Shown piece after piece: positions 25,974-54,236 of a stretch of DNA of 64,000 nt. Position 1 is the stretch's first letter; every line of letters starts with the position of its first letter. Both the position numbers and the translations under genes were made by a program. A model generated the notes under the pieces. The model was given only the letters and a program-made list of their open reading frames with translations. It was not told the DNA's origin and searched no databases. The DNA is from an uncultured Lachnospiraceae bacterium (lineage in GTDB: Bacteria; Bacillota; Clostridia; Lachnospirales; Lachnospiraceae): the NCBI GenBank assembly GCA_946537305.1, contig CAMNFR010000002.1, forward strand, positions 48,564-112,563. Direction: 5' to 3'.

Positions 25974-27350
25974 ATGTTATATCAGACGACAGACACGCCG
26001 GAACCTTCTCCGGAAAACATGCGGGATCCGATTCTCTGTTATATCCGGGAGCGTATTCTGGCGAAAGGATCTGTAAGCGCCGGACAGGCACAGGAATTCC
26101 TTCACTATATTGGCCTGGATGCCAAAAATCTGCGGACGATGCTGGAACTGGAAGAGCCGTATGTGCCGCTGACAGATCAGGAATATACGTGGGATCAGGT
26201 CTGCGGAAAGCATGCGGAGCTGGATCTGAATGATTATATGAAACAGGGTGTCAGCCGTATTCAGAAGGCGCTGGGGGAAAAGCAGGAAGAAGTCATTAAT
26301 CGCGCTGCGGACTGCATTGTACAGGGCCTGCGGGAAAAAGGAGATGCCGCATTTGCCTGCTTTATACTGGAACCGGAGGCAGAGAACGGTCTCGGACGCC
26401 TGCTGCAGCAGGAAAAACAGATAGATTACGGATTTCTGATCGATATCAACAAGAACACTTTTCAGCAGATCAAGGAAAAGGATGAGTCGGCCAGAAGAGA
26501 GCGCCCCGGTATTTTCGGACACCGGCAGGAGGCACTGGATGATCTGCTGGAGACCGTGGATCTTTTCCTGAGCCAGCGCTATGAGATGTATCGTTATAAA
26601 GCTGTGGAAACTGTGTGCGACCAGCTGACGGAAAACTTTGTCTCCCATGCACCGGTTTTTCCGTCGGGTAGCTGTCCGCCTGTATGGGCGTCAGTCTTTG
26701 AGCAGATGAATCTGTACAGTATCTTTGAACGGGAATATCTGCGATCTTTCCTGACAGATTCCTTCCTGACTTCGGATATGCTGTGGGAGGCAGCGGAGCG
26801 ATGCAAGGCACTTGCTGCTCCGCCGAAGCCGGCAGAACCCGAACCGGAACCGGCGCCGATGCCTGCACCGGAGCCAGTGCCTGTACCAGAGCCGGAGCCA
26901 GTGCCCGAACCGGAACCTGCCGCTGACTGGGATTGGGACGATGACTGGTCGGTTCCGCAGGAGACAGTACCCCAGGTACCGGAGGCAGAGGAAGAAAAGG
27001 AGGCTCCCGGGAACGCAGAGGAACGGCCTGACCTCTCTCTGCTTGAAGAGGGGGTGGAAAATCAGTGCATTATTATTCAAAATGACCAGATTATTTTGAA
27101 TGTTTATGATATAATGACACCGGTGGACACTTCGGGAATGACGCTTCTTCAGGGAATGGATAAGCTTAAAGAGATGCAGAGGGAAGGCCTGAAGCCGGTT
27201 TTTTCGAGGACCTATGAACTTCGGGACCAGGAAGATCTGCTGATCCTGTTGAAGAACGAAGCGTTCGTTCAGCAGCTGAAGAAGAGCATAGAAGCGGTAA
27301 AACAGCGCCGGCAAACCATTGAAAAGCTGACGGAATGGCTGTTGTCATAA
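25974..27350 (+). CDS. Hypothetical protein with Pro/Glu-rich linker and acidic-Trp motif
   Basis: 458 aa with an SD (aggaga). The central linker is PPKPAEPEPEPAPMPAPEPVPVPEPEPVPEPEPAADWDWDDDW (motif at 26925-26948). No recognised family. Confidence 0.7.
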   Translation: MLYQTTDTPEPSPENMRDPILCYIRERILAKGSVSAGQAQEFLHYIGLDAKNLRTMLELEEPYVPLTDQEYTWDQVCGKHAELDLNDYMKQGVSRIQKALGEKQEEVINRAADCIVQGLREKGDAAFACFILEPEAENGLGRLLQQEKQIDYGFLIDINKNTFQQIKEKDESARRERPGIFGHRQEALDDLLETVDLFLSQRYEMYRYKAVETVCDQLTENFVSHAPVFPSGSCPPVWASVFEQMNLYSIFEREYLRSFLTDSFLTSDMLWEAAERCKALAAPPKPAEPEPEPAPMPAPEPVPVPEPEPVPEPEPAADWDWDDDWSVPQETVPQVPEAEEEKEAPGNAEERPDLSLLEEGVENQCIIIQNDQIILNVYDIMTPVDTSGMTLLQGMDKLKEMQREGLKPVFSRTYELRDQEDLLILLKNEAFVQQLKKSIEAVKQRRQTIEKLTEWLLS

Positions 27351-27366
27351 AGGAACGAATAAGATC

Positions 27367-28932: not shown

Positions 28933-29178
28933 ATGCAGACAATGAAAACATTGGAAGAAGAGATCAAAGCCCAGAAAATAGAAACTATACGAAAAGACGG
29001 GATGTTCCGCCTGCTTGGAATCGTGGTGGTGGTGGCAGCAGTATATTTTGCCATACAGTTTGTTCATGCAGATTTTAAGATACTGACGTTCCTGAATCCG
29101 TGGGCGAGCGCAGTTATGCAGCTGATCGGCGATCTGCTGTATCCCATCAGTGATCTGCTGCGTGAACTGATACCGTAA
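28933..29178 (+). CDS. Small single-TM protein between the two GTPase genes
   Basis: 81-aa ORF with one hydrophobic segment (FRLLGIVVVVAAVYFAIQF). The start is ambiguous (ATG 28933 or 28942). Confidence 0.5.
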   Translation: MQTMKTLEEEIKAQKIETIRKDGMFRLLGIVVVVAAVYFAIQFVHADFKILTFLNPWASAVMQLIGDLLYPISDLLRELIP

Positions 29179-31002: not shown

Positions 31003-31003
31003 T

Positions 31004-33262
31004 ATGCAGCTTTTGTATGGAAATGACGGCGTCAATTACAGGGTGATCGATAAATCCGCCGAAATGACGGACGGCGTGCAGAAAACGCTGCTGGGATCCT
31101 ACTCCCGCTACGATTTTGTGACGGATCCGAAGGTCTATTCCTCCGTGGCGCAGGAGCCGGAAGCGATAACCTATGTTTCCACTAACCTGGACAATCAGCT
31201 GAAAAGCGACCAGGTGGTGGTCTGCAAAATGGGGCACATGCGTAATTTTTCCTCTCCCAGCTATTATTTCCACGGTCTGGTGAAGGAAGTCCCTGCGGAT
31301 TATTATAAGAAGGACTTTTTTGAACTTTTCGGCTATCAGTTCATTCCGGATGTGGAGGCCAATTCCGCACATTACAGCGGGGGAACGGTGGATGGATATC
31401 AGTTTCCCGTACAGCCGGTCAACCAGAAAGCATTGACCGACGAACAGCTGATCGTGATTCTGGCAAGCTTTCTGTCCAATGACAAAAAGGGACAGAAAAC
31501 AAAGATCCTGTGCGATGCTTCCGGGGATGATTATAACCGTCGCAGCCGCGAGATCCTGGCGTCGATCTATCATTATCTCCCCTATGAACTTCGCAAACGC
31601 TATGGCTTCAAATCTTACAGCCAGGATGAGAAGAATCTTCCGGCGCGTGTTGCCTTTGTGGTTTTCCCGAAGGAAGAAGTACACGATGTGACTGGATTTG
31701 TCACCCTGCAGGAATCCCGGGGAGACATAGCGCATTCTGTGGAGCGCGAATACCTTGATTACGCAGCCTATCTGGTGGAAAAACTGGATGATTCACAGCG
31801 TACGGAACATTTTGAGACCATGTCCAAGCTGGCGAGTAACGGATATCTCCGGATCAAGGACTGCGTGGATTATTACAACAACCTGAAGAACTGGTCCAAC
31901 GGGACGCAGGAAGCGCTGCTGCCGGACTGGATTCAGTATATCGATCAGAACAGCTTCCGCAAAGGGCCGCTCTATGAGATGCTGCTGAAGATCATTGTCG
32001 CTAAGGTGGATAACGCATATTACAATGATTACCTGTTTGATCAGACATTGAGGCTGTATCAGGAGAACGTATACAATCTGTCTCCCCAGGCGGCCAAGAC
32101 CATGCGCTTCGCGGACTGCCTGGATGAGATCTTTATCGAACCTGCCCGGTTCCATGAGTGGTATCAGGAGCAGCTGCAGGCAAAGATCAATATGCTTCGA
32201 CCGGAACAGAAGGAATCTCCGGTCTATATGGCAGGCTTTTATGAGGAAGAGATCCGCGCCTTGGAACAGGTAGATATCATGAGCGAGGAGCTGAAGGAGC
32301 TTCTTCAGACAGAGGTGCAGAATCTTCGGGCAAAGATCCGCAGCAACGCGGCCAATGTGGAAGAGCAGAAGGACCGGGAGGTTGAGGAACTGCATCGCCA
32401 GGTCAGCAAGATCGGCAGAGTGGAGGATCTGGTGTCGATGGTCGAGATCCTGCGCCGCAATATTCAGTTTGCTGAAAATAAAGAAGTGCTCACGGCGAAT
32501 GTGGAAGAGTGGCTGGCGGAACATATCCCGGACAGAATCACTTCCGAAAGCGAGTTGCGGATCTGGAAAGAACAGGTGGAGAAGCTTGGTGGAAATATTT
32601 CCGCGGAAATGCAGGAAAACATCCTGAGGGAGCTGGCGAGAGAAGAACAGCTTCAGATCCAGGCGAGAGAGTCTCGCAAATGTGTCATCCGGCCGGGGGA
32701 GGTCCTGAGATCCTATCGGAACCTGGTGGAATATCTGGCTAAAGGCGTGCTGCAGCCAGAGGATAAGGTGATAGCTGAGATCGGGAAAAGAGCACCGAGT
32801 GAATATAAAGCTTCTACCATGTTGAAAATGCTTAGCTTTATCCTCTATCCGGAGGATGAGTCCCAGGGCAGTGTCTCGATTGCATGGAAGCGCGTGTTCC
32901 TGGAAGAGAAGCTGATGACGGCGGAACATGCTGAATATCTGCTGAAGGATCCGGAAGCAGAGGAGGAGTTTGTTAAAAGAGTAGTGCACTTCTTCCTGAA
33001 GGAAGATTCCGTCAGGATCTCCGGCATCTATCTGGCAAGACTGATTCAGCGGTATCATCCCGAGCTGAATGCCATGTTCCGAAAACTCTATGAAAAGGGA
33101 GAGGACGAGGAGTACTTCTTCTCGGATGAACTGAAAACGCTGTCAGCATCTGCCCCCAAACGGAGCAACTGGGCTTATGAGACAGAGTCGGAGCCCCAGG
33201 AGGATCATTCCAAACAAGGAAAGAAAGGATCACTGGGGGGCCTGTTCGGAAGGAAATGGTAA
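31004..33262 (+). CDS. Large hypothetical protein (coiled-coil-rich C-terminal half)
   Basis: I prefer ATG 31004 (SD ggacaggagg; 1 nt after the upstream stop) over the ORF-track start 30947. That gives 752 aa with no recognised family. The N-terminus MQLLYGNDGVNYRVIDKS is worth testing against GTPase-associated (GAP1-type) N-domains. Confidence 0.7.
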   Translation: MQLLYGNDGVNYRVIDKSAEMTDGVQKTLLGSYSRYDFVTDPKVYSSVAQEPEAITYVSTNLDNQLKSDQVVVCKMGHMRNFSSPSYYFHGLVKEVPADYYKKDFFELFGYQFIPDVEANSAHYSGGTVDGYQFPVQPVNQKALTDEQLIVILASFLSNDKKGQKTKILCDASGDDYNRRSREILASIYHYLPYELRKRYGFKSYSQDEKNLPARVAFVVFPKEEVHDVTGFVTLQESRGDIAHSVEREYLDYAAYLVEKLDDSQRTEHFETMSKLASNGYLRIKDCVDYYNNLKNWSNGTQEALLPDWIQYIDQNSFRKGPLYEMLLKIIVAKVDNAYYNDYLFDQTLRLYQENVYNLSPQAAKTMRFADCLDEIFIEPARFHEWYQEQLQAKINMLRPEQKESPVYMAGFYEEEIRALEQVDIMSEELKELLQTEVQNLRAKIRSNAANVEEQKDREVEELHRQVSKIGRVEDLVSMVEILRRNIQFAENKEVLTANVEEWLAEHIPDRITSESELRIWKEQVEKLGGNISAEMQENILRELAREEQLQIQARESRKCVIRPGEVLRSYRNLVEYLAKGVLQPEDKVIAEIGKRAPSEYKASTMLKMLSFILYPEDESQGSVSIAWKRVFLEEKLMTAEHAEYLLKDPEAEEEFVKRVVHFFLKEDSVRISGIYLARLIQRYHPELNAMFRKLYEKGEDEEYFFSDELKTLSASAPKRSNWAYETESEPQEDHSKQGKKGSLGGLFGRKW

Positions 33263-33265
33263 ATC

Positions 33266-34460: not shown

Positions 34461-36722
34461 ATGAAGAAGCGAATTCTGATATTGGGAATGGTCCTGGCCA
34501 TGCTTGGCTCCGTTTTCAGCTTCCCGACGTCCAATGTTCGCGCGGAAGATGAAAACAAAAATAAGAAGCTGGATCTGGTCATGGTTCTGGATAAATCCGG
34601 TTCCATGAAGGGAAACGACCCCAATGGTTTAATGAAGACAGCGGCCAATATGCTGACGGCCATGATGCCCGCCAAATCCGGGCGCGTGGGCGTGGTTGCC
34701 TTTAACATTAAATCGGAACAGGTGGTAGGCCTGACCGAGCTGACCGACGTGACGTCTGTGAATGATATCATGGGCAAGGTCAGCACCATCAAGTATAAAG
34801 GGGATACCAACATCGGCGACGCTGTTTCCGATGCAGTGGATATGTTCGACTTAAACGATGACCACGTGCACGCGGTGCTGGTGCTCTCCGACGGCAAACC
34901 GGATTTCGGTCTGGATAAGAACGCGGAGCAGGCCAGTGATGAACGGCTGAACGATACGCTGGCCAAGATCAAGGGTAAGGAGTGCTACATCTATGCCCTG
35001 GGATTCGGCAAGGACATGGCGGATACCAATGATGTTCCGTACAAAAAGCTTTCAAGTATTGTCACTTCCCCGGAGACCATATCCACGGAAACCGATCCCG
35101 CAAAGATTCACGAATTCTTTGTGAAGATGCTGCTGGATCTGATCGGGGCCAAGATCCCGGAGATCTATGACAATAAGATCCCTATCGAGCCGAATGTAAA
35201 GGAAGCCAATATTTACATCAGCTCCGCGGAGGACATGACGGATGTGACAGTGGGACTGACGGATCCCTCCGGGAATAGCATTCCCATGGAAAACAGTGAA
35301 AAGGTGTGGTTCTTTAAGGACAGCTATTCTGCTGTGATCAAGCTGTTTGACCCCGCGCCGGGGGAATACGTCATCAGTACGTCCCGTGAGGATATCAACA
35401 TCACGGTCGGCTATGTGCCGTTCTATGATTATACGCTTCGCAGTGAGATCGTGGACGAGACCGGCGTACCGGTGGAGAAACTGGATAACGGCAAGACAGT
35501 GGAGATCCGCACCTGCCTCAGCCAGGAGGAGCAGGACGTGACCGAGCCGATGGCTTACGATAATGTGACTGCTATGGCTACGGTAACGGCGAAGGACACC
35601 GGCGAGAGCGTAGAAGTGCCGCTGACATTCCGGGATGGGATGCTGCGCGGCAATATGAGCTTTGAGCGTGTGGCCGCCTACACGGTGGATATCCGCGTGG
35701 AGTCAGAGACCTTCGACCTGAAGGATCAGCTTACGGTGGAGACCAACCAGCGCGGTTTTGGCTGGGCACCCGGACAGACCGGCGTGGATCTGATCGAAAA
35801 GAAGATCCTGGATAAGACCCTGAAAAAAGAAGTGACCCTGCTGGTGGATAATCAGGAGCTGATGGGGGCTATTGAAGATCCCGACGGCGTGGGCGTAGCT
35901 CTGGATCAGGTGACTTCCAGTGATGAGGAAAAGGTTACGGCGGAGATCACCAATGACGGAATACTGCTGACCGGTAAAAAGTGGGGGTCTTCTCTGATTA
36001 CCGTTACGTACCGGGATGGTCTGGGCAACACGCTGGAGACTTCCTTCACCACCAGCGTGAAAGATAAGATGCTGATCGCGTTCTTTGCCGCGCTGCCGGT
36101 GCTGCTGGGCCTGATCGCCGCGCTGGTCGTTTATCTGATCATGCGGCAGTCCCGTATGATCCGCGGAGATTTTGAGATCACCCGTGTGACGATTGACCGC
36201 GGTGACAGCGATGTATCCATCATCTCCATTCCCAAGAGTTACAAGGGCAAGACCTTTGTGGGGCGGAAGAAGACGCTGGGCAACGGCGTGTCCCGATACG
36301 CACAGGATGTATATTCTACAGACGGCACCCTGCTGCAGGTACAGCAGCTGTACCAGATGTTCTCCAACACCCAGTCCGAGATGCGCCAGAACCTGGATAC
36401 CTTCCAGTTTATCGGCAGCTACCTGGGCCGCAATGGCTGCAGCATCAAGGTGAAGAAGGGATCTCCTGTGTCCCTGTCCAATAACCGCAGCTACCGCCAG
36501 GCTGTCAAGATGAAGTGGCCGCAGAAGGCGACGTTCAAGGTGTTCACCAAGGATGCTTCCGGGACGGAGATCTGCGTGGAAGGCCGCTACGCCATGGGCC
36601 GCAAGGCCGGTGCCTCCGCCGCGAAGGGCGGAAAAGGAGGAAGAGGCGGACGTCAGAATGCCGCTCCCACGCCGCCGCCTGTACAGAATAACAACGATTT
36701 TGACGAGGATTTCTTCAGTTAA
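34461..36722 (+). CDS. Secreted/type-I membrane vWA-domain protein with cytoplasmic tail
   Basis: 753 aa. It has a signal peptide (MKKRILILGMVLAMLGSVFSF..VRA) and a vWA MIDAS motif (LDLVMVLDKSGSMKGND). A single TM (MLIAFFAALPVLLGLIAALVVYLIM) lies near residue ~540. A ~190-aa tail follows, ending in a Gly/Lys-rich stretch plus NNNDFDEDFFS. Confidence 0.85.
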   Translation: MKKRILILGMVLAMLGSVFSFPTSNVRAEDENKNKKLDLVMVLDKSGSMKGNDPNGLMKTAANMLTAMMPAKSGRVGVVAFNIKSEQVVGLTELTDVTSVNDIMGKVSTIKYKGDTNIGDAVSDAVDMFDLNDDHVHAVLVLSDGKPDFGLDKNAEQASDERLNDTLAKIKGKECYIYALGFGKDMADTNDVPYKKLSSIVTSPETISTETDPAKIHEFFVKMLLDLIGAKIPEIYDNKIPIEPNVKEANIYISSAEDMTDVTVGLTDPSGNSIPMENSEKVWFFKDSYSAVIKLFDPAPGEYVISTSREDINITVGYVPFYDYTLRSEIVDETGVPVEKLDNGKTVEIRTCLSQEEQDVTEPMAYDNVTAMATVTAKDTGESVEVPLTFRDGMLRGNMSFERVAAYTVDIRVESETFDLKDQLTVETNQRGFGWAPGQTGVDLIEKKILDKTLKKEVTLLVDNQELMGAIEDPDGVGVALDQVTSSDEEKVTAEITNDGILLTGKKWGSSLITVTYRDGLGNTLETSFTTSVKDKMLIAFFAALPVLLGLIAALVVYLIMRQSRMIRGDFEITRVTIDRGDSDVSIISIPKSYKGKTFVGRKKTLGNGVSRYAQDVYSTDGTLLQVQQLYQMFSNTQSEMRQNLDTFQFIGSYLGRNGCSIKVKKGSPVSLSNNRSYRQAVKMKWPQKATFKVFTKDASGTEICVEGRYAMGRKAGASAAKGGKGGRGGRQNAAPTPPPVQNNNDFDEDFFS

Positions 36723-36818: not shown

Positions 36819-39800
36819 ATGGCTTTAAGTCCGCTGAAAAAAGAAAAGCTGGCGCAGCTGGAGCTGAATAAGGGAGGTGTGGCGTTCGTATCGCAGAAAT
36901 CCTCTGTGACGCCGAATCCCACGGTGATCATCAGTCTGGGCGGCCTGGGTGGAAAGACCCTGAATGCCCTGAAGGGCAAATTTGTGCGTGAGATCGGGGA
37001 GAGCGATCATATTTATTTCCGAATGATCGATACGTCTCTTCCGGACATGGATGATCTGTGTAAGGTAAAGTCGGACGGAACCATGAATACTTCTCCGAAC
37101 GCGCATCTGGAACAGATAGAGGCGGTGCCGATCTTTGATCCTGCGATCGCAAATATCCTGAAGGCCGGCTCCATTCCGCCCAACATCAAAAACTGGCTGA
37201 ATCCGGCGCTGATCGGTACGGAACTGGATAACTCCGGTGCCCAGCAGATCCGCCAGATCGGCCGCGCGATGCTGACCAACGACACCGTGTATTTCAATGT
37301 CCGCACCAAGCTGAGCTCTGCAATTCTGAGTGCCATCGGCCAGATGCCGTTTGGCGGCAATGTGGACGTCATCCTGATCGCCGGTGTATCCGGCGGTACC
37401 GGCAGCGGCACGGTGATCGACCTCAGCTATATGATACATGACATCTTCAAATCTGCGGGAAGCACCAGCTATAAGCTGGCGGGCTATATCTTTACCCCGG
37501 ATGCTCAGTTCATGATTCCGCAGATCAAGAATAACCCTACGACGCTGCTGAATCTGAAGAAGAACGGATATGCGGCCCTGAAGGAAATCGATTACTTCAT
37601 GAATATCCAGGAGACACAGAGTGTCTATAAGCTGGAGCTCGGCTCTTCGGCGGTCACCTCCACCAAGAACATCTTCAGCAGCTGCACGCTGGTCTCCGGC
37701 TATGCCTCCGGCGGCGGCATGAACGATACCGATGTGACTATCGGCCGTCTGACCGATCAGCTGATGGATATGCTGACGGATATTACCATCACGGACAAGG
37801 GCGGCATGCCGCAGCAGATGTCCGCCTCCATTTTGAGCAATGAGAACGCCAACCTGAATTCCTGGTTCGGACTTCATCCGGCGCGCCGGATCTATCACCG
37901 CTATGCTTCTTACAAATATCAGGTGCTGGGGTACAATTCCATCGTGATTCCCCGGGATGAGATCCTTGCGTACTGCGTGAACAAAATCTATGCCGGCGTG
38001 CTGCAGGAGTTCCAGAATTTCTCGCTGGTGAACAAGCAGATGATGCAGAAGGTGTTCGCGCAGACGAATGTGATCAACCCGGATACCTTTGTGCAGTTTG
38101 CGACAACCATCAACGCGAATAACCCGATCAACCGCACGCTGGTCATGGACGGCGGCTACACCAAGTCTATGATCAAAAATGATCCCATGATCGCCTATAA
38201 CGATGCGGTGGATCTGGCGCATGCGGAGCGCGTGAAAATCAATGGCGGCTTCCAGGCCATGGTGGAGGATCATGTTTATAAGGCACTGTCCCAGGAAGTG
38301 GATAAGATCTTCAATCAGTTTGGTCCGTACGTGGCCATGAAGGCCATTGAGCATAAGCACACGGAACTGAGCGTGGGAGATCCCAAGGAACCCTTCCCCG
38401 GTATTATTGAAATGCTGGAGCGGCAGAGCGAAAAGCTGATGGCCCGCGCCAATGCGGCGAACAACGCATTTAACAATGGCGGGCATCAGCAGATCCAGGC
38501 GGCGGCCAATGAGGCTATGGGCGGTCTGTTCGGGACCAACCACGCCGCGGTGAACAACTATGTGGAGATCTGCTGCAACCAGGCGGTGACCTCTCAGATT
38601 GATGTGGTCCTGTTTAAGACCCTGTCCGATGCGCTCTACAATGTGGCGGTCCGCATGAACAAGCTGAATTCCGACCTCTTTGAGGTGTATACCAGCATCC
38701 TGACCGAAATCCAGAAAATCCTGAACCAGGACGGCCAGTACTTCTCGAATTCCAATATGTCCCAGGTGGGCAATAACCGCTACTTCTCCATCGATATCAT
38801 TAAGAGCGGCAAGGGGAAAGCTGACCGGCTGGAAAAATACCTCGATAGCTTTATCTCTACAGTATCCGTACAGGAGCTGGCGCAGAACTTCATTAAGAAG
38901 ATGCGTGATAACCGTGACAAGTGGGTGGCCCAGAACAGCGAAAATGATTTCGACGTGGTGGCCGAGGTCCGCGATCTGATGGATGACTGCTTGAATTCCA
39001 ACAAGATGACCACGGATATTGTAGAAAAATTTGTGACGGTCGCCTACAGCACCAAGGACATGAAGCCGGAAGAACTGGATGCCATCTGGGATGACAACAC
39101 GCCGACCGGTCCTAAGATGCAGGCACTGGCCTCCGCCGCGAATGAGATCTACCAGCAGCTCTCCAACGGAGCGCAGCCCATGGCGAATTCCACGGGTCAG
39201 ATCCCGCTGAACAGCTTTGCTGGACAGCTGTTTATCAGTACGCTGAAGGATACGCCGCAGCTGACAAATATCCTGAATAATCTGGTCAAGGGGGCGCAGG
39301 GATTTACGCCGGCGACCAGTGATTCCAAGAATAAATTCATCTTTACCCGTCAGTATATGAGCCTTCCCATGTATATTCTGTTGGGCATGGGTGAGTACAA
39401 CCAGGTATACGTGGAAAACCCGAGCGCGGGACGCCACATGGACGAGAACAACCAGAACTGGGGCCGGTTCCCGAACCCCTACACCATCGATTCCGTGGCG
39501 ATCGATCTGGCGACTGCCCAGCGGCCGGCAGAGGATATCGAATCGTATCCGGATTACAAGGTGCTGACCGATGTGAAGGCCAAAGCCACGGACGGCGTAA
39601 AGAAGTATGGGTTCATCAATGTGCAGGTGGATGCCACCGGTATGGGACATATGTATCTGAATGACATTACAAATACGCCGGCGGATATGGAAGCCTTTAA
39701 AGAGGGATTCTACAATGCGCTGATGAAAAAGAAGAATCTGGATGTCATTGAGTACATGAAGCAGAACGGGTTTATTATCAATCCGATTGAGGTGACACGC

Positions 39801-42308: not shown

Positions 42309-43724
42309 ATGGCAGCCAGAGGTACCAGAAATACAACCAATTCCCTGAATAAAGGTGTACTGGTCATCAGTGCGGCGGCTGGCGTCGTGGGCAGCTTTGT
42401 GTCCGGTCTGATTTACCGGATCATCAGCCCGATGATGTGGAGTCCGCTCGCTGTGGGCATCAGCTTTATGATCTTCGCAGCTGTGCTGATCGGGATTATG
42501 GTGGTGGTGAACCTGCTGAATGATAATCTGGGATTTCATGTCAGCAAATTTCATGACGGCGGGCAGATCATCCTTACACTCATCGGCTTTATTCTGGGAG
42601 CGCTGATTTTGGGGACGCTCTTTGAATTCATCTATGAGATGAACTTCTTTGAGGGAAAGAAGGGGTATCAGGAGCCGACTTCCTATGTATTCCTGATCGA
42701 CAATTCAGGATCCATGGACAGCAGTGATCCCGAAAATGTCCGCTACGCCGCTATAACTCAGATTATCAGCGGCAAAGAAGACAGTTTCCCGTACGCGGTA
42801 TATGGATTCAGCAACGGGGTAGAGGTTATGCGGGAGCTGGCACCTATATCTGCCGGCAACAATGAATTGACCGGGATAGCCTCCGGCGGCACCGAAATCC
42901 GCGGTACGCTCACCCGTCTGTACGAGGAGTATGAGAATGGGCTGAAGGACCAGCTGGGCGAAGCCCCCAAGTTCCTGCTTCTTTCAGACGGCTATGCCAC
43001 GGATATCGGCTGGTTTAGTTCTATCAATAAGATTCTGAAGGAATACGCCAAAACAAATATAGAGATTTCTACGGTAGGTCTGGGGGAAGCAGATGATGAA
43101 TTGATGCAGCAGATCGCGGATGATACCGGCGGCGTGTATATCAGTGTCAACGATGTGAACCAGCTGGAACAGTCCATGTCGCAGGCAATCTCCAAATCCG
43201 GCGCGAATAAATATGCCAGAACGCTGTATACCCTGCGAAATGTTCCTTCGCTGAACTTCCTGTATGCTCTGATGCGTATTGTGTTTACGGCCATTCTGGG
43301 CGTGGGCATTTCCTGCTCTATGCTGTTTGCTACCGGCAAGGGAGATGACAGCGATAAGATCGTTACGACCTCCATCATCACCGGTGTGCTTGCAGGCTTG
43401 GCATTGGAACTTCTGATCAACGGTATCCCGCTTCCGCCGAATCTTGTACGTTACCTGTACTTTATTCTGGTAGCGCTTACCTTTATTACTGAGATGGGCT
43501 TTGGCGGAAACGGCAGAGGCGCAAAGTATAAGGATGCGGACGATATGCTGGGAGGCGGCGGACGCATGCAGATGGGCGGGAAACAGAACCTGCGCAATAC
43601 CGGCGCCGGAAATACCGGCGGAGATATGGATGATCTGATGGGCGGCGGCACATCCGGGGGACGATCCGGCGGTGCATCTTCCGGTGGTTCATCCTATGAC
43701 GATGATTTCTTCAATGACTTCTAG
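42309..43724 (+). CDS. Polytopic membrane vWA-domain protein with Gly-rich tail
   Basis: 471 aa. About 3 TM segments come first, then the vWA MIDAS motif (YVFLIDNSGSMDSSDPEN), then about 3 more TM segments. The tail is Gly-rich and ends SSYDDDFFNDF. Confidence 0.85.
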   Translation: MAARGTRNTTNSLNKGVLVISAAAGVVGSFVSGLIYRIISPMMWSPLAVGISFMIFAAVLIGIMVVVNLLNDNLGFHVSKFHDGGQIILTLIGFILGALILGTLFEFIYEMNFFEGKKGYQEPTSYVFLIDNSGSMDSSDPENVRYAAITQIISGKEDSFPYAVYGFSNGVEVMRELAPISAGNNELTGIASGGTEIRGTLTRLYEEYENGLKDQLGEAPKFLLLSDGYATDIGWFSSINKILKEYAKTNIEISTVGLGEADDELMQQIADDTGGVYISVNDVNQLEQSMSQAISKSGANKYARTLYTLRNVPSLNFLYALMRIVFTAILGVGISCSMLFATGKGDDSDKIVTTSIITGVLAGLALELLINGIPLPPNLVRYLYFILVALTFITEMGFGGNGRGAKYKDADDMLGGGGRMQMGGKQNLRNTGAGNTGGDMDDLMGGGTSGGRSGGASSGGSSYDDDFFNDF

Positions 43725-43733: not shown

Positions 43734-44315
43734 ATGATTACCGGATTACAGGTAGAGACAAAACATGATGATACCCGGGTGCTGCGCGCGATCAAGGAAA
43801 ACCGCAACGACCAGAACCAGTATCTGGTGTATCTGAATCCTAATAAAAACGGACTTTTGGCCGGAGGCGCCGAAAAGGGGCAGGCAATCCTGATTTCCGC
43901 CGGCGCCAACAATCCCAATCTGATTTCCTACGATTTCCGCCTGAAACGCGGACTGTATGATGTGGTGATTGAGCGTATTGAAAGCATTGCGGGAGGAGAA
44001 ATTCACACGGACCCGGAATCCCGATACGAGTATCCGGACCCCGTGATGGTGGGACAGCGTTATCTGGTGCGTTCCAAGGTGGAAGATACCGTCTGCTATG
44101 GCGAAGCCGGCGTGCGGGTCCGCATCCAGAGCGTGGAGGTCCCGCTGGGGCCGGAAATGGTCTATTACGTGATCGACAGAGATGAACTGAAAGACATAAA
44201 ATATTATGTTCCCTTTCACGATGAGAAGAAGATTGATTTCTTCGTCAAAGGGGTACAAAGCGGTGAGATGCAGCTGTATCTCGGCAATCCGAGCTTTCAG
44301 ATCGAACGGATATAG
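43734..44315 (+). CDS. Hypothetical soluble protein
   Basis: 193-aa ORF with an SD (aggagg) and tight spacing. No recognised family. Confidence 0.65.
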   Translation: MITGLQVETKHDDTRVLRAIKENRNDQNQYLVYLNPNKNGLLAGGAEKGQAILISAGANNPNLISYDFRLKRGLYDVVIERIESIAGGEIHTDPESRYEYPDPVMVGQRYLVRSKVEDTVCYGEAGVRVRIQSVEVPLGPEMVYYVIDRDELKDIKYYVPFHDEKKIDFFVKGVQSGEMQLYLGNPSFQIERI

Positions 44316-44336: not shown

Positions 44337-45257
44337 ATGGGTTCATTTGACAGCTGGGACGACTGGGACGATGATTTCAGTGATACCGGCACAGGAAGCC
44401 AGAATCAGAATACAGGAGGCCGTCGGAGCAGCTTTGATGATGATTACGGCAATCAGGGCGGCGGCGATTTCGGAGGCAGCGGAGGCAGCCGCAAGGGCGG
44501 CAGCTACCCCGTGCCACGGGATGAGGACCAGTACGGTGTGCGGCCGCAAGGCCCCGGCCGCGGCGGTTACACACCACCCGCGCAGCAGACAAGTGATGAT
44601 TCAGGCGTCTATGTGATCCGCAGCATCTCGGAAGTGCCGCTCTCCGGACAGGGAGCACTGAGTAAGATCTTCCGGGGCATCCCCTTCACGGCGAATAATC
44701 AGATCAATATTTCTCTGCAGGAAGCCGGGAGCCTTGGCCACGGAGGCGGCGCTATTAATGGCATCATTTACGGTAAGATTGAAAATCAGGCGTTAGGGCC
44801 CGGTATGCGGGTGAAGATCCGGGGAACGGTCAAGCGCGGCCAGATCATCATCAAGGACCTGTATGATGTAGACAGCGGCGGCCTTCCGATTGGCATCAAT
44901 CCCTACTGGGTGGATCCGATGTATCAGCAGAGCTCATCCAACCGAAGGGGAAATCCGGCTGCGATGGCAGCGGTCCTGGCAGTGATCGCTATACTGGCTG
45001 TTGCGTTTTTCCTCCTTCGAGGCGGAATCGATCCTTCAACATTGAATAAGATCAAGATAGCGGCGATCATTATCGGAGCACTGGTCTTCATCAAAGTGTT
45101 CAACATCAACATTTTTAACAACTCGTTTGTGCAGAAGGTGATACTGATCGTGGTGCTATGCGCCATCGCCTTGTACGTCCCCGGCGGGGACAGTGTGATG
45201 GTGTGCGCCATCATGATTTTTGGTCTGTATATCATGCTGAAGGGAATCATAAAATAG
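44337..45257 (+). CDS. Membrane protein with N-terminal acidic-Trp motif and Gly-rich linker
   Basis: 306 aa. The N-terminus is MGSFDSWDDWDDDFSD (44346-44378), followed by a G/S/N-rich region. The C-terminal third has 3 hydrophobic segments. Confidence 0.65.
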   Translation: MGSFDSWDDWDDDFSDTGTGSQNQNTGGRRSSFDDDYGNQGGGDFGGSGGSRKGGSYPVPRDEDQYGVRPQGPGRGGYTPPAQQTSDDSGVYVIRSISEVPLSGQGALSKIFRGIPFTANNQINISLQEAGSLGHGGGAINGIIYGKIENQALGPGMRVKIRGTVKRGQIIIKDLYDVDSGGLPIGINPYWVDPMYQQSSSNRRGNPAAMAAVLAVIAILAVAFFLLRGGIDPSTLNKIKIAAIIIGALVFIKVFNINIFNNSFVQKVILIVVLCAIALYVPGGDSVMVCAIMIFGLYIMLKGIIK

Positions 45258-45301: not shown

Positions 45302-47989
45302 ATGGCGAATGGAAATTATGGATCATTGCTGCGGGAGGATTATTCCAACGACTATGTCGTGACCCACAAGAATGACATTATTTCCCGGAATGCGCTGGAT
45401 GATCCCTTTTATCAGGGACGTCAGGTGGATCTGCCCCATATTCAAAAAGGCCAGCTTTGTCGGGTTTCCAACCAGGAGATGGCCTTTTTTCAAATACGGG
45501 GAATTTCCCGCTTCTGGGGAGAACAGGAAGACTTTGATATTAATGGAGTGATGTCGGATCTGCTCTGCGGCCTGAACAAGGAAAAAATGGGCTATGCCTA
45601 TATTCTCCGGGGAGATCGCAGCGGCATTCGGATATGCATTGGCATCGATTCATATCTGATCGAGTCTCTGAAAAGCTCGCTGATGTCCCTGTTCCCGAAT
45701 ATAAGTCTGGAACCGGTGGGGCTGGGGGACGTGGTCCCGCAGAGTATGACGGACGGCGGCATAGTTACGGGCATTCCCACGAACAAGCTTTCCGGAGACA
45801 AGCCGGGCGATGTGCAGATCGATCACATCATCCGCGGCATGGTGGGAAAAGATTTTGTCTATGTGGTATATGCTTCGGGAATCGCGCCTTACCAGGTGAC
45901 GGGATGGCATAATGCGCTGCTGCAGGAAATGTCCCATGCCTTCGAATACCAGAAAAGCGGTATCAGTGACAGCGGTACCACCATCGATAAGCAGAGCTTT
46001 GTGCACACCCGCTACTTTGAGAATCTGGAAGAACTGGAACGCACCTATCATGTAGGTCTGGAGCGTGGCATGTGGTATTACACTGCCTATTTCGGGGTAA
46101 ATGATGATGCCTCCGGAGAGGTGTTCGGCAATCTGATCCGTTCTACGTTTTCCGGGACGGAATCCCGACCGGACAAGGTCCGCACGCTGTACCATGCGAA
46201 GCCTCAGGTGATCCTGCGCCTCATCCGGAGCGGCATGCAGCTGCTGGATACCCTGGAAGACGGGATGTCTCATCCGCTGGGGGAGAGCGCCGCATATAAA
46301 TATCAGTCCATTATCAACAGTGATCAGCTGGGCGTGATCAGTGCGCTTCCTATGAAGGAGTACCCCGGGTATTATATTGATAACTACGTGGAATTTGATG
46401 TATCCAACCGACCTCGCTATAAGATTGAAGAACCGGTGCCCATCGGGGATATCATGAACGCCGGGCGTGCCGTCCCTACCGGGGTGCGAAACAGGTATTC
46501 TATCGAAAAGAATGATTACACCAGGCACTGCCTGATCATAGGCATCACGGGCGGCGGCAAGACCAATACCAGTAAATCTCTGCTGCGGACGCTGTGGCGG
46601 CAGCCGCCGGAAAAGAGGATCCCTTTCCTGGTCATCGAATCCGCTAAGCGGGAATACTGGGAGCTGCGCAATCTGGAAAACTTTGAGGATCTGATGGTCT
46701 ACACATTAGGGTCCGAGGATCCGGAAAAGGCTGTGCGGTACCGTCTGAACCCCTTTGAGACGCTGCCTGGGATTTCGCTGCAGAGCCACATCGATCTTCT
46801 GCTGGCCACCTTCAAAACGGCCTTTGAGATGTACCCGCCCATGCCGTATGTGCTGGAAACGGCGGTGTATGAGGTCTATAAGGATCGTGGCTGGAATATT
46901 GTGACCAACAAGAATGATTACGGGCTGACGCGCTACCCCACGCTGAGCGATCTGTACGACAAAATCGGCTATACCGTAGAGAACATGGGCTATGATAAGG
47001 AAGTCTCCTCCAATATCCGGTCGGCTTTGGAGGCACGCATCAATTCGCTGATGATCGGCGGTAAAGGGGCCATGCTGAATACGCCCAAATCGATCCCCAT
47101 CGAATCTCTGCTGAGCTATCCAACGGTGCTGGAGCTGGAAGACATCGGAGATGATGAGACCAAATCCTTTGTTATCGGCATTCTGCTGGTCCAGCTGTAT
47201 GAGTACCGGAAATACCAGAAGGATAAGATCAACGGTGCCAAGAAACTGCAGCATATCCTGATGGTGGAGGAGGCGCATCGCCTGCTGAAAAATGTTTCCG
47301 AATCAGCGAATCCGACGCAGGCCAAGTCTGTGGAATTTTTCTGCAACATGCTGGCAGAGATCCGTACGTATGGGCAGGGAATCTTTATTGCGGATCAGAT
47401 TCCCACCAAGCTTGCTCCGGATACCATCAAGAACACCAACCTGAAGATCGTGCACCGCACGGTGGCAAGGGAAGACCGGGAGACCATCGGTATGGCCATG
47501 AACATGACGCCGGAGCAGATCGAGTATCTGAGCTCGCTGCCCCGTGGGTTTGCTGCGGTCTATGCCGAAGGAGATAACCGGCCGAAATGTGTGAAGCTGC
47601 CGCTGGTAAAGGACAAGTATTCCCTGACCAGAGAGCAGGTGATCGGTCCTATCCGCAGCAAGGTGGATAACCAGTTGATTGATGATTTTAAAGAGATGCA
47701 CTGCGGCTGTACCTACTGCGAGCAGCGCTGCCGCTTCGGCGAAGCCATAAAGAAGAATCTTTCGGCGGTTAATATGGCCGGAGGGATTGCGGAAATTGAA
47801 AAACATAAGTATAATGTAACCGTAATCGATAAATTTATCTCCTTCCTGGAGCAGAAAAAAGTGATTTCCTGCGAAGGAATTCACGGCCGGCTGTGTGCGG
47901 CGGGATTCCTGTTGGAAAGATGTAAGTTAGATCGTGGTTATAAAAAGAAAATTCTGGCAGGGTATGTCCGCTATCTGTCAGAGAAATAG
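45302..47989 (+). CDS. HerA/FtsK-like (DUF87-type) P-loop ATPase
   Basis: 895 aa. Walker A is IIGITGGGKTNTSK (46541-46564) and Walker B is HILMVEEAHRLL. GIFIADQIPTKL and KIVHR follow downstream. The C-terminal region has a Cys cluster (CGCTYCEQRC). Confidence 0.8.
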   Translation: MANGNYGSLLREDYSNDYVVTHKNDIISRNALDDPFYQGRQVDLPHIQKGQLCRVSNQEMAFFQIRGISRFWGEQEDFDINGVMSDLLCGLNKEKMGYAYILRGDRSGIRICIGIDSYLIESLKSSLMSLFPNISLEPVGLGDVVPQSMTDGGIVTGIPTNKLSGDKPGDVQIDHIIRGMVGKDFVYVVYASGIAPYQVTGWHNALLQEMSHAFEYQKSGISDSGTTIDKQSFVHTRYFENLEELERTYHVGLERGMWYYTAYFGVNDDASGEVFGNLIRSTFSGTESRPDKVRTLYHAKPQVILRLIRSGMQLLDTLEDGMSHPLGESAAYKYQSIINSDQLGVISALPMKEYPGYYIDNYVEFDVSNRPRYKIEEPVPIGDIMNAGRAVPTGVRNRYSIEKNDYTRHCLIIGITGGGKTNTSKSLLRTLWRQPPEKRIPFLVIESAKREYWELRNLENFEDLMVYTLGSEDPEKAVRYRLNPFETLPGISLQSHIDLLLATFKTAFEMYPPMPYVLETAVYEVYKDRGWNIVTNKNDYGLTRYPTLSDLYDKIGYTVENMGYDKEVSSNIRSALEARINSLMIGGKGAMLNTPKSIPIESLLSYPTVLELEDIGDDETKSFVIGILLVQLYEYRKYQKDKINGAKKLQHILMVEEAHRLLKNVSESANPTQAKSVEFFCNMLAEIRTYGQGIFIADQIPTKLAPDTIKNTNLKIVHRTVAREDRETIGMAMNMTPEQIEYLSSLPRGFAAVYAEGDNRPKCVKLPLVKDKYSLTREQVIGPIRSKVDNQLIDDFKEMHCGCTYCEQRCRFGEAIKKNLSAVNMAGGIAEIEKHKYNVTVIDKFISFLEQKKVISCEGIHGRLCAAGFLLERCKLDRGYKKKILAGYVRYLSEK

Positions 47990-49695: not shown

Positions 49696-49723
49696 CAGCA
49701 TCTTTTGGCGAAAGGGTATAACG

Positions 49724-51362: not shown

Positions 51363-51536
51363 ATTCTTAGATTACCAGACAAGGCTTCCGGTGGTTCCGC
51401 TATCAGTTATTCACATGGCATATTCGCAGAACTCAGTCATAAAATGAAAAAAGATGGAATCCTTTCACACTTTCTGCTAGAATAGCGGTATGTCGGCATT
51501 TTTTGCAAATGATGTCACCCCTGACAGGAGGTCACG

Positions 51537-52547
51537 ATGCCAGATAAAAGATGTTCGCTCGATCCTGAAGCTTCGCTTATGGGCAAGAACCATGAGCAGA
51601 CTACCCTTCGCCCTGAAGTTACGGTCATCGGTGCGGCAATCATGGATATGGTCGTAGGTCCGGTGAGCGAGGCAGTTTTTCGGACAGGCTCCCAGCCCAT
51701 GCAGTATTCCCGCCTGACCTACGGAGGCGACGCCCTGAATGAATCCTTGATTCTGTCAAAACTGGGCGTGCGGACGGAGCTGATCACGAAGGTGGGAAAC
51801 GATGAGACCGGCGAACGCATTCTGGCACATGCAGCAAAGAGCGGTATTATTCTGAATCATGCAATAAAGGAAGACGGACTGACCACGGGCATCAATGTGG
51901 TATTGGTAGATTCGTCCGCTGAACGCTATTTCCTGACAAATCCGGAGAGCAGTCTGCGGAAGCTTTCGGAGGAAGACATTCTGCCCGCGCTGGACGAGGC
52001 GGCGGATATCGTAAGCTTTGCCAGCCTGTTCGTATCTCCCCTGCTGGACATTCCGGCGATGGAACGGGTATTCCGGAAGATCAAGGAAAAACCAGGACGG
52101 ATTTTGACGGCGGACATGACCAAGGCAAAAAATGGGGAGACCCTTCGGGATCTCGCGCCGTTGATCCCCCATATCGATGTTCTGCTGCCCAACCGGGAGG
52201 AGGCCTCTCTGCTGACCGGGGAGGCAGATCCGTACCGCAGCATGCAGTGCATGCTGGAAGCAGGCTTTTCCTGCGTAGTCATGAAGATCGGAGGGGATGG
52301 CTGTCTGGTAGGACGGGGCGGAAAGATCACTCGCGTTGCAGCCTGTCCTGTAACAAACGTATCGGATACCACCGGTGCCGGGGACAGCTTTGTAGCGGGC
52401 TTCCTGTACGGACTGACACAGGAGCTTTCCGCAGAAAAATGCGCGGGCCTTGGCAGCGCGACGGCGGCCTGTACCGTGGAAGCCGTAGGTGCAACGGAGG
52501 GGAAAATCACTCCGGAAGAGATTATGAGACGATTCGAAAGGAATTGA
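51537..52547 (+). CDS. PfkB-family carbohydrate kinase (ribokinase-like)
   Basis: 336 aa with an SD (aggagg). It has VIGAAIMDMV near the N-terminus and the DTTGAGDSFVAGFLYG PfkB signature 2. Confidence 0.9.
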   Translation: MPDKRCSLDPEASLMGKNHEQTTLRPEVTVIGAAIMDMVVGPVSEAVFRTGSQPMQYSRLTYGGDALNESLILSKLGVRTELITKVGNDETGERILAHAAKSGIILNHAIKEDGLTTGINVVLVDSSAERYFLTNPESSLRKLSEEDILPALDEAADIVSFASLFVSPLLDIPAMERVFRKIKEKPGRILTADMTKAKNGETLRDLAPLIPHIDVLLPNREEASLLTGEADPYRSMQCMLEAGFSCVVMKIGGDGCLVGRGGKITRVAACPVTNVSDTTGAGDSFVAGFLYGLTQELSAEKCAGLGSATAACTVEAVGATEGKITPEEIMRRFERN

Positions 52548-54236
52548 ATGTATAGAGAAGATGACTTCCCGGAAGAGAACTACCGGGAAGAAGATTACTG
52601 GAATGAGAATTCCTGGGACGACGATTTCCGGGAAGAACGATACAGAGACGAGCCTTACAGAGACGAATCCTACAGAGACGAGCCTTATAGAGACGAGCCT
52701 TACAGAGATGAACCTTACAGAGGCGAATCATATAGAGACGAGTATCACAGAGACAACGCCTATGGGCAGGGAGATAACAGTGCTGGATACAGGAGCAGGA
52801 GAGAGGAACGGAAAAGGCGGCAGCGCAGACGCAGCGTCTTTCACCGCCTGCTGTTCCTGGTCGTTCTGGTGGTCGTCTTGGCTGCGGCTGTCTATATAGG
52901 CGGCTCGCGGCTTGGTCTGCACCTGCAGGTTCCTTCATGGCAGAGCGTCGAGGAGGATGCATCCTCGCTGACACAGCAATTCATCGACGGCGTGCAGGAG
53001 CTGATCGGCGGGAAATCAGAGAGCAGTGAGGATAATAAGGCTGCCGGACAAGAAGAAAATAACGCGGCTGCGCAGGAAGATAGTAATGCGTCCGTGCAGG
53101 GAGATAGTGCGGCAGCACAGTCGGGAGGCGACGCGGCCGCAGAACAGTCAGATGCTGCGGCTGCCGCACAGACGGCGGCAGAGGACGGATCGGATGAAGC
53201 CCTGCATCAGGCGCTGACATCCGGACCCTATTATTTCTATCGTCAGCTCAACGAAGACGATCAGGAAATCTATCGCCTGATCTACGCCGGCGTCACAAAT
53301 ATGGAGAAAGAGATCAGCTGTCCCACGCGGGATTACGAATATGTCTACCGCATAGAGGATCTGATGCTGGCGGATCATCCGGAAATCTTCTGGTATGAGG
53401 GCCGCGGCAACTCCCTGCAGTACGCCTACAAGCTGGTGCTGCAGCCGGAATACACGGTGGATGCCGTTACAAAAGCGGAGCGGGAAAAGAAGATCGCGGA
53501 GGAGACGGCAGAGTTTATGTCGCACGTCGGCCCGGATGAAACCTCCTACGAGCGTCTGGCGACAGCCTTTAACTTTATCACCAACCGGGTGTCATATCAG
53601 GCAAATTCCCCGGATGACCAGAATCTTGTCAGCGCGATGATCCACCACCAAAGCGTGTGCGCGGGTTATGCCAAGGGCGTGCAGTACCTGCTGCAGCAGC
53701 TGGGCATAGAGTGCCTGTATGTATGGGGCAGTGTGGACGGCCGCGGAGATCATGCCTGGAATATCGTTAATCTGGACGGCGTCTACTATCACTCGGACGC
53801 TACCTTCGGCGACCGTTCCTTCACGGATGGCAGCACGGAGGATCATGGCCTACCGGCGGCGCTGGCACAGGAATACGGATATCTGTGCATGAGCGATGAA
53901 AAAGCCCTGCGCGACCGGACCATTTCCATGGACCTGCCGGAGGGCGTCAGCGTGCCGGTCTGCAGTTCAGAGGACCAGTCCTACTACCGCCGGCACGGAT
54001 GGTATTTTGAAACCTATTCCGAGGCCGTCTGGGACGATATGCGTCAGACCCTGGCCTCCGGACAGACATACTGGCGCTACCAGTTCGGAAGTAAAGAAGC
54101 CTACGAAAGCTTCCTGGAAGAGATCGCCGACAACCGGTTCGCCCGGATGGCCCTGGAAGAACTGGGGCTCTCCAGCGTCCGCAGCTATACCAGCCCCAAC
54201 GACACCCTCTGGATCGTCGCCGGTTGGGTGCCGTGA
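52548..54236 (+). CDS. Membrane-anchored transglutaminase-like protein with N-terminal YRDEP repeats
   Basis: 562 aa. N-terminal acidic/aromatic repeats are followed by a TM (LLFLVVLVVVLAAAVYI). The core is CAGYAKGVQYLLQQLGIECLYVWG...GDHAWNIVNLDGVYYHSDAT. It is collinear with 49724-50809. Confidence 0.8.
   Translation: MYREDDFPEENYREEDYWNENSWDDDFREERYRDEPYRDESYRDEPYRDEPYRDEPYRGESYRDEYHRDNAYGQGDNSAGYRSRREERKRRQRRRSVFHRLLFLVVLVVVLAAAVYIGGSRLGLHLQVPSWQSVEEDASSLTQQFIDGVQELIGGKSESSEDNKAAGQEENNAAAQEDSNASVQGDSAAAQSGGDAAAEQSDAAAAAQTAAEDGSDEALHQALTSGPYYFYRQLNEDDQEIYRLIYAGVTNMEKEISCPTRDYEYVYRIEDLMLADHPEIFWYEGRGNSLQYAYKLVLQPEYTVDAVTKAEREKKIAEETAEFMSHVGPDETSYERLATAFNFITNRVSYQANSPDDQNLVSAMIHHQSVCAGYAKGVQYLLQQLGIECLYVWGSVDGRGDHAWNIVNLDGVYYHSDATFGDRSFTDGSTEDHGLPAALAQEYGYLCMSDEKALRDRTISMDLPEGVSVPVCSSEDQSYYRRHGWYFETYSEAVWDDMRQTLASGQTYWRYQFGSKEAYESFLEEIADNRFARMALEELGLSSVRSYTSPNDTLWIVAGWVP
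52641..52757 (+). repeat. 15-bp in-frame tandem repeat (YRDEP/YRDES/YRGES units, about 8 copies)
   Basis: tacagagacgagcct and close variants are repeated head-to-tail. Confidence 0.85.

Follow-up and report, generated by a model that had tools for sequence, protein, structure and literature searches.

The stretch of DNA analysed in the present study (the window, 64,000 nucleotides of contig CAMNFR010000002.1 of an uncultured Lachnospiraceae bacterium) contains a firmicute conflict system of the GAP1-N2 / DO-GTPase / FtsZl1-tubulin / two-vWA type, a locus of a known kind that has been described purely by prediction. All genes from about 10136 to 54236, and with them all features of the locus given below, lie on the + strand. 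Three membrane proteins of this locus, namely vWA protein 1 (vWA1), vWA protein 2 (vWA2) and a protein of 306 amino acids (aa), carry at a terminus acidic-aromatic peptides that are genuine short linear motifs (SLiMs), and these tips would, with a probability that we put at roughly 55%, couple the membrane sensors to the soluble machinery of the system by docking. A previous sequence-only reading had united six such peptides as docking handles for one common cytoplasmic hub. All six are present in + strand frames, at or a few codons from the positions given for them, and low-complexity linkers flank them as described. Only three of the six sites belong together, however: the peptides of vWA1, vWA2 and the 306-aa protein behave like docking SLiMs, whereas those of a 458-aa soluble protein, a giant acidic protein and a transglutaminase-like protein do not. 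In addition, the HerA-like ATPase is not a general hub, and the motif does not link the transglutaminase-like gene 52548 to the cluster.

vWA1 (753 aa, 34461..36722; Pfam VWA, 4e-14) consists, in this order, of a signal peptide, a vWA domain with a metal ion-dependent adhesion site (MIDAS) of the DxSxS type, three Ig-like domains, a transmembrane (TM) helix (residues 536-563), a basic cytoplasmic domain (residues 565-712) and a disordered tail; the signal peptide and the TM helix show that the tail is cytoplasmic. In a Foldseek search, the ectodomain matched pilus adhesins, the I domains of integrins and the anthrax toxin receptor. The AlphaFold 2 (AF2) model, made with a 35-sequence alignment, has an overall predicted local distance difference test (pLDDT) score of 83, with 85-92 for the domain beside the tail, and leaves residues 716-753 undocked, with pLDDT values of 30-35. 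The tail comprises a basic/polar linker beginning with KGGKGGRGGR (aa 716-742, 36606..36686; pLDDT below 50) and the tip NNNDFDEDFFS-COOH (36687..36719). A database search found 53 homologues at 39-100% identity, and the 51 full-length ones yielded 42 distinct tails. At least two aromatic and at least three acidic residues are found among the last 12 residues in 37 of these 42 tails, and the other five keep FF or FxDF, ending in GFDDFFS, NSFFD or DGFNDFTF. Typical endings are ..DFEDDFF-COOH and DDFDDFTF-COOH; counted back from the end of the protein, Asp occupies positions -5 and -4 in 32/42 tails, Phe position -3 in 33/42, and Phe or Thr position -2 in 38/42. The linkers of the homologues (30-45 aa, 17% K+R, rich in Gly, Ser, Thr and Asn) are unalignable, and pairwise identity amounts to 38% over the last 10 residues and to 11% over the preceding 30, so the conservation of the motif against a diverging linker, which had been proposed as a check, is borne out for vWA1, where a conserved core lies within a disordered and divergent segment. 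The strict motif occurs at the C-terminus of 12/27 vWA1 orthologues, as compared with 1/303 open reading frames (ORFs) from the same contigs that do not belong to the system (Fisher p = 8e-14).

vWA2 (471 aa, 42309..43724; Pfam VWA, 3e-12) is a polytopic protein with its vWA domain between TM bundles according to hydropathy, an architecture that agrees with the description by Kaur et al. 2020, section 29. The TM layout suggests that both of its termini are cytoplasmic. A Gly/Ser-rich linker (43494-43688) precedes the tip SSYDDDFFNDF-COOH (43689..43721). Orthologues of the window clade end in DSDDDFFDF, SSDDFF, GNIDDFF or SEDDFFSKY, and in Erysipelotrichaceae the C-terminal ITFDDDF(NTGG) is accompanied by an N-terminal MDFNDFDDFE. 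The strict C-terminal motif was found in 8/15 vWA2 orthologues vs the same 1/303 background.

The 306-aa membrane protein (44337..45257) is composed of an N-terminal motif, a G/S/N linker, a β-rich domain and three to four C-terminal TM helices; it belongs to no Pfam family, and its gene is always located directly upstream of the gene for the HerA-like ATPase. The lack of a signal peptide points to a cytoplasmic N-terminus. The N-terminal peptide MGSFDSWDDWDDDFSD (44337..44384) represents a hydrophobic-DDD-hydrophobic peptide found across the family, and a second, weaker copy, SSFDDDYG, lies in the linker (44427..44450). Among 1.84 billion representative proteins, which were searched exhaustively, 19 relatives turned up, whose N-termini include SDWDDDW, SWDDWDTDW, SDWDDWDDW, FDDFDDFF and FDDFDDFNDF, with NPLDDDL[SD][VI] in distant members.

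The pattern [FWY]DDD[FWY] was observed five times in the window, where 0.046 occurrences were expected, and the looser [FWY]D[DE]D?[FWY] nine times, where 1.4 were expected, as estimated for 37 window proteins that were shuffled protein by protein. The regular expression proposed in the sequence-only reading gave 5 hits vs 0.7 expected in the window. No hits to these patterns were found in the flanking housekeeping genes (440-9935 and 55323-62925). In the contigs examined, the motif is not equally common in unrelated proteins, which that reading had named as a reason for abandoning the idea: besides the single C-terminal hit mentioned above, the strict motif was found at the N-terminus of 0/323 non-system ORFs. 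The tips are kept down to about 40% protein identity in vWA1 and vWA2 and to about 30% in the 306-aa family, while the flanks are not. The three peptides resemble docking SLiMs because each forms a conserved terminal island beside a divergent disordered flank, because the carriers belong to unrelated families and because their residue preferences vary in parallel. The motif recurs in vWA1, vWA2 and the 306-aa family and, in some lineages, in the tails of GAP1 proteins as well; in Thomasclavelia, the GAP1 tail carries SFDDFDV or NDFIDDDF. The flavour of the motif follows the lineage: it is W/F-rich in the window clade, takes the form FDDFDDF in both vWA2 and the 306-aa protein of Erysipelotrichales, and becomes LDDDL/IDDLSL in the lineage of the related locus L010, where vWA2 begins with MEIDDLSLGG and the 306-like protein with ..NLDDDLSVS. 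A co-evolving receptor shared by the different proteins would give rise to just this lineage-matched flavour.

In the mechanism that we favour, the two outward-facing vWA receptors and the HerA-associated 306-aa protein would each expose a cytoplasmic disordered tether with an acidic-aromatic tip, which in the vWA proteins takes the form [ND]-D-F-[ED]-D-D-F-F-x-COOH and in the 306-aa protein, N-terminally, the form hydrophobic-DDD-hydrophobic. The tips would dock onto a partner, most likely the pair made of the second tubulin (tubulin-2) and a 601-aa protein, encoded between vWA1 and vWA2, or else the DO-GTPase/GAP1 switch; binding outside the cell at the MIDAS might then be passed on, so that a polymer or a GTPase complex assembles in the cytoplasm. 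Both the binding of the tips to a protein and the choice of partner are inferred.

The proposal of a single common hub did not find support. HerA, which is absent or replaced in loci that retain vWA tips, was rejected as a general receptor for the vWA tails: the loci L003, L008 and L012 (Erysipelotrichaceae/Thomasclavelia) have the strongest tips and no HerA or 306-aa gene downstream of the gene for a 193-aa protein, which is directly followed by housekeeping genes. In L058 (18883-19480) and L059 (15226-16175), HerA and the 306-aa protein are replaced by a 1103-aa ATPase of the FtsK/SpoIIIE type, another membrane protein (253-267 aa) and a 66-aa ORF, and the ..DDFF tips are retained. HerA may nevertheless be the docking site for the N-terminal peptide of the 306-aa protein, beside which it is always encoded. 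Given that the GAP1 tail itself bears the motif in Thomasclavelia, the candidates for a single receptor, if there is one, are the DO-GTPases, tubulin-2, the 601-aa protein, the 193-aa protein and a 379-aa membrane protein. Among these, the tubulin-2/601-aa pair would rank first and the GTPase/GAP1 core second. The pair is preferred because the N-terminus of tubulin-2 is basic (12/43 conserved basic columns fall within its first 84 residues), because its gene lies between the vWA genes and because the vWA-FtsZl1 linkage is conserved.

Several observations weigh against docking on a receptor within the system. Neither Pfam, PDB sequence searches nor Foldseek revealed a peptide-binding domain (TPR, CAP-Gly, MSP, PDZ or SH3) in the locus proteins, and the AF2 model, in which the tail of vWA1 is not docked onto the cytoplasmic domain of the same protein, is silent on partners in trans. 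A comparison of tip-bearing and tip-less lineages showed neither a receptor-like insertion nor a specific loss of basic residues. In L014, L015, L017, L018 and L023 (tubulin-2 identity ≤35%), vWA1 stops after the cytoplasmic domain and has no tail; these tail-less loci retain two GTPases, GAP1 and tubulin; the 601-aa protein, vWA2 and HerA are kept as well in L014 and L023. As the distant relatives keep the core components, the tips are a clade-specific addition that is not essential to the system. Gene presence and absence in tip-bearing vs tip-less lineages likewise gave no receptor signature. Searches of Pfam (at E-values up to 10) and of PDB sequences returned nothing usable for the 601-aa, 193-aa, 306-aa and 237-aa proteins, nor for the tubulin's C-terminal region and the cytoplasmic domain of vWA1. 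The idea of an FFAT/MSP pair was dropped after the Foldseek matches of the 193-aa protein proved to be generic Ig/FNIII folds (best E 2e-3), none of them MSP-specific.

By analogy, the acidic-aromatic tip on a disordered tether is of the same kind as the SSB tip, the FtsZ C-terminal peptide and the FFAT motif. The C-terminal tip of SSB, ..DFDDDIPF-COOH, recruits many genome-maintenance proteins. It resembles the tips described here in that a disordered linker leads to an acidic run with an aromatic/hydrophobic end, the tip being conserved and the linker not, and one type of peptide serves as a docking handle; unlike SSB, the carriers are integral membrane proteins and not an OB-fold DNA-binding protein, and one of the motifs is N-terminal. 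Assignment to the SSB-Ct type was rejected, given vWA and other membrane proteins as carriers and endings in DDFF(x) or DFTF, not D-D-D-I-P-F-COOH. The conserved C-terminal peptide of FtsZ (DIPxFLR) binds the membrane tethers FtsA, ZipA and SepF, and here, too, a short peptide on a flexible linker would join a tubulin-family protein to membrane proteins, although binding to FtsZl1 is presumed in the present case, the polarity would be the opposite, since the membrane proteins carry the peptide, and an acidic-aromatic sequence stands in place of the amphipathic DIPxFLR. FtsZ-type tethering proper was excluded: the C-terminus of tubulin-2, ..NPYKVLKRFYELIQTSFE, is well conserved among close orthologues and has no acidic-aromatic tip.

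Eukaryotic cells use comparable peptides: FFAT (EFFDAxE) binds the MSP domain of VAP, EEY/F-COOH binds CAP-Gly, W-acidic motifs bind the TPR of the kinesin light chain, and DPF/DPW/FxDxF motifs bind the AP-2 appendage. The likeness, which is one of analogy only, lies in two aromatic residues within an acidic tract, in disordered segments and in several clients per motif class; unlike in these cases, searches of the locus brought up none of the domains concerned (MSP, CAP-Gly, TPR or appendage-like). Membership of the FFAT/VAP-MSP class was rejected, since two Phe residues in an acidic tract are present but Pfam found no MSP domain. In P0198, a distant relative of the 306-aa protein, the single N-terminal motif gives way to a Gly/Ser linker with about eight NDPF/SDPF repeats, which resemble the eukaryotic DPF repeats, as in Eps15.

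Integrins and ANTXR combine a vWA/MIDAS ectodomain, an Ig-like stalk and a single TM helix with linear motifs in the tail that couple to the cytoskeleton. According to AF2 and Foldseek, vWA1 has the same architecture, and through the motif in its tail it may be linked to a polymer of the cytoskeletal type; it differs in belonging to a bacterial conflict system, in that the polymer would be tubulin-like and not actin, and in a motif unrelated to NPxY. A more far-reaching form of the docking mechanism would be an integrin-like outside-in device, in which the vWA/MIDAS receptors act through their acidic-aromatic tails on an FtsZl1 polymer and the double-GTPase switch, and a second, basic peptide completes a two-code SLiM network, the whole serving as an on-demand immune or membrane-remodelling machine. 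We regard this extended scheme as unlikely, if conceivable.

The basic-aromatic motif [KR]-x-G-[LIF]-F-G-[HKR], to which this scheme refers, recurs on soluble components, and its position is conserved in at least five families. In the window it was found in DO-GTPase 2 (30892-30921), the 458-aa protein (26502-26531), the 601-aa protein (41391-41420), the extreme C-terminus of GAP1 (33236-33259) and the N-terminus of the in-cluster transglutaminase paralogue (49724-49753). DO-GTPase 2 carries RKGLFGHRDE and the orthologues of DO-GTPase 1 carry KGLFGREK or KNLFGKEK, in each case near the C-terminus; RPGIFGHRQE or RAGIFGHREE occurs in the 458-aa family, RTGLFGKSRQ in the 601-aa protein, GGLFGRKW, FGLFGGKW or KKPFGFFK at the extreme C-terminus of GAP1, and MDIRGIFGGK at the N-terminus of the in-cluster transglutaminase paralogue. 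Perhaps no folded hub is needed, and the acidic-aromatic tips pair with these basic-aromatic peptides through charge and through contacts between aromatic residues, many weak contacts clustering the machinery at the receptors. The positional conservation of the basic motif speaks for such pairing, as do its location on soluble proteins, with the acidic tips mainly on membrane proteins, and the build of the vWA1 tails, where a basic block is followed by an acidic-aromatic one. Its enrichment in the window, however, is modest (7 observed, 2.5 expected), two peptides of about eight residues would bind each other weakly, and the motif is equally present in the tip-less lineages L014, L017 and L023; its primary role is therefore probably a different one, a MARCKS-like membrane-binding patch being the simplest idea. 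We consider such direct peptide pairing quite unlikely.

The tip could also act in cis or between like molecules, folding onto the basic cytoplasmic domain or linker of vWA1 in an autoinhibitory manner or binding a neighbouring receptor. There is a precedent in SSB, the tip of which autoinhibits by folding on its own OB fold, and the cytoplasmic domain of vWA1 is the most basic segment of the locus (+10 to +16 per 150 aa), with a linker of near constant length and inconstant sequence. That domain is equally basic in tail-less orthologues, though, the AF2 model leaves the tail undocked (pLDDT about 33), and the tips of vWA2 and of the 306-aa protein, both of which lack this domain, would stay unexplained, so we judge the explanation distinctly improbable. 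Still less probable, in our estimate, is that the tips mimic or engage a factor of the host or of an invader, either as an SSB-tip decoy or as a protease signal for the zincin-like domain of the giant acidic protein. The formal likeness to the SSB tip (acidic run, aromatic/hydrophobic residues, free C-terminus and disordered linker), the HELRH motif of the giant protein and the fact that no receptor domain was detected in the locus are consistent with an outside factor; on the other hand, no evidence of cleavage was found, the motif of the 306-aa protein is N-terminal, so that a free carboxylate is not needed, and the parallel flavour within lineages better fits a co-evolving receptor of the system than a universal host factor.

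Functionless compositional chance in low-complexity acidic regions is scarcely credible as a general account and is refuted for the three conserved sites, which sit in basic or Gly/Ser/Asn-rich linkers and not in acidic ones, persist while their flanks diverge and are nearly absent from the 323 non-system ORFs, but it does apply to the site in the giant protein, is plausible for the N-terminus of the transglutaminase-like protein and fits the unconserved site in the 458-aa protein. In the last of these, AADWDWDDDW (26919..26948; aa 316-325, in a PEPEP linker) is lineage-specific: DWDWDDDW is lacking both in the L055, L056 and L022 orthologues and in the homologues from Erysipelotrichaceae. The peptide of the giant acidic protein, ESDFEDLDFGELDE (20467..20508), is judged to be compositional: it matches no core pattern, and the protein has a net charge of -518 and a pI of 4.05. 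This protein (20284-25224, 1646 aa), for which nothing was found in Pfam, contains long EEIEDIPEE and EELEEQ arrays, then a coiled-coil-like region and, after it, HELRH zincin-like and AYFHDTG HD-like motifs. Orthologue fragments of it are located upstream in L055, and an N-terminally similar protein is encoded 3' of HerA in L023.

Gene 52548 encodes a transglutaminase-like membrane protein of 562 aa, and NSWDDDFREE (52608..52637) lies in its cytoplasmic N-terminus, where WDDDF is part of a D/E/Y/R repeat (YRDEP x6). The orthologues P0073-P0079 have acidic, Tyr-rich N-termini (e.g., MDWDDD.., YDDEFEYYEEED.. and YDDYDDYY..), followed by a poly-Arg stop-transfer signal and a TM helix. Since such N-termini are kept amid housekeeping genes at the two orthologue loci examined (P0073 and P0078), where no gene for a DO-GTPase, a tubulin or a vWA protein lies within 10 kb, the acidic N-terminus is a feature of the protein family that is independent of the cluster, contrary to the earlier suggestion that the motif ties gene 52548 to it. 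The sole remaining link of this gene to the cluster is its paralogy with the in-cluster gene 49724-50809, the two transglutaminase-like paralogues sharing 45% identity. The in-cluster ORF extends over 49505-50809, and its start is probably the TTG at 49724, with GAAAGGG upstream, which gives a product of 361 aa with no TM helix or signal peptide and not the 434-aa ORF overlapping the YARHG gene; the orthologue P0082 begins with MDIRGLFGGK.

QWDDYENDE (12383..12409), a site missing from the earlier list, lies 10 residues from the C-terminus of a 768-aa, N-terminally TM-anchored protein. This protein (10136-12442, at the upstream edge of the locus) has no Pfam match; it contains a Rossmann-like GSGSIAEE segment, and its C-terminal region resembles RyR-type domains. 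A RyR-domain protein (L060:2252-3856) is also encoded near the transglutaminase orthologue in L060. In L014, a distant relative without the vWA tail tips, a DO-GTPase (L014:3326-5116) ends in the acidic-aromatic tail ..EELEEVWDDIEDQGELFQL.

As to the identity of the locus, Kaur et al. 2020 (PMC7159879, section 29) described a firmicute tubulin theme of GAP1-N2 DO-GTPase conflict systems, and the vWA/FtsZl1 operons of Makarova and Koonin 2010 (PMC2875224), in which the linkage of vWA and FtsZl1 genes is the most conserved feature, correspond to the same system. Gene order is preserved in more than 20 related loci. Like the system of Kaur et al. 2020, the present locus encodes two DO-GTPases with N-terminal zinc ribbons and a DxxGE Walker B motif, two Tubulin_2 proteins whose C-terminal regions are long, an Ig-stalked vWA protein and a polytopic vWA protein with the vWA domain extracellular; the putative GAP1 protein is compatible with it in its polar C-terminal extension and its place directly after the GTPases. 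It differs in the addition of the HerA module, of DUF4062-STAND NTPase, YARHG and transglutaminase-like genes, and of the giant acidic protein with its zincin-like and HD-like motifs. The tips are not to be confused with the peptide-processing systems (FxSxx-COOH and acidic types) of Kaur et al., which concern small precursor proteins in VMAP systems and not receptor tails.

The two DO-GTPases (27367-28908 and 29251-31002) match Pfam DO-GTPase2 (PF19993) with 34.7 and 27.4 bits (cut-off 27), and both contain GxxxxGK[ST], D-M-P-G-E and CxxC pairs. The GAP1-like protein (31004..33262), encoded directly 3' of the GTPases and ending in GGLFGRKW-COOH, was tentatively assigned from a GAP1-M match (20.2 bits, under the cut-off of 24), synteny and the C-termini of its orthologues, and gave no match to GAP1-N2. 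The listed ORF runs over the end of DO-GTPase 2 (30947-31003); the real start is probably the ATG at 31004, because the orthologues begin with MQLLYGNDG. The first Tubulin_2/FtsZl1 protein (823 aa, 16981..19452) and the second one, tubulin-2 (1220 aa, 36819..40481), which has a conserved basic N-terminal extension, were identified with Pfam Tubulin_2 at 2e-33 and 2e-49, respectively. The 601-aa protein (40500..42305) belongs to no recognised family, and its gene is always 3' of that of tubulin-2; both are candidate receptors. The soluble 193-aa protein (43734..44315; AF2 pLDDT 91) is predicted to consist of tandem Ig/FNIII-like β-sandwiches, and its gene directly follows that of vWA2 in all loci with a detected homologue. 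It may be the FNIII-type component reported by Kaur et al. for DO-GTPase systems. The HerA/DUF87-like ATPase (45302..47989), the partner of the 306-aa protein, was identified with Pfam DUF87 (6e-9) and through HerA/mad8 hits in PADLOC, which found only these generic hits and no known defence system in the locus. The other genes of the window identified with Pfam encode a DUF4062 + STAND-like NTPase, a zinc-ribbon + YARHG protein and the two transglutaminase-like paralogues.

FtsZl1 / DO-GTPase / vWA systems are widespread, and a full-text literature search found computational descriptions only and no experimental work on them. The acidic-aromatic tips and the basic G-[LIF]-F-G-[KR] peptides appear in neither PMC7159879 nor PMC2875224, and to our knowledge the acidic-aromatic tips are new in this context and have not been reported. 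A conserved receptor-tail tip of about eight residues offers a cheap and direct experimental handle for finding the receptor and for uncoupling sensing from assembly. If the extended, integrin-like scheme is correct, such a motif-wired bacterial machine would be a prokaryotic counterpart of the adaptor networks DPF/FxDxF-AP-2, EEY-CAP-Gly and FFAT-VAP.

Some minor features of the locus and its relatives may be mentioned. An 81-aa ORF with a single TM helix lies between the DO-GTPase genes (28933-29178), and a counterpart of 77-93 aa occupies the same place in the related loci examined. The distant FtsZl1 loci L036-L054 have other partners and no vWA genes and were left out of the tip comparisons. 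In the related locus L056, genes for ZorA/MotA-like and MotB/OmpA-like proteins are located immediately upstream (L056:1-1888), and genes for a zinc-ribbon-anchored Peptidase_M15 and a NADase_transloc protein are inserted after vWA1 (L056:12432-14452); the two findings agree with a role in defence in which effectors can be exchanged.

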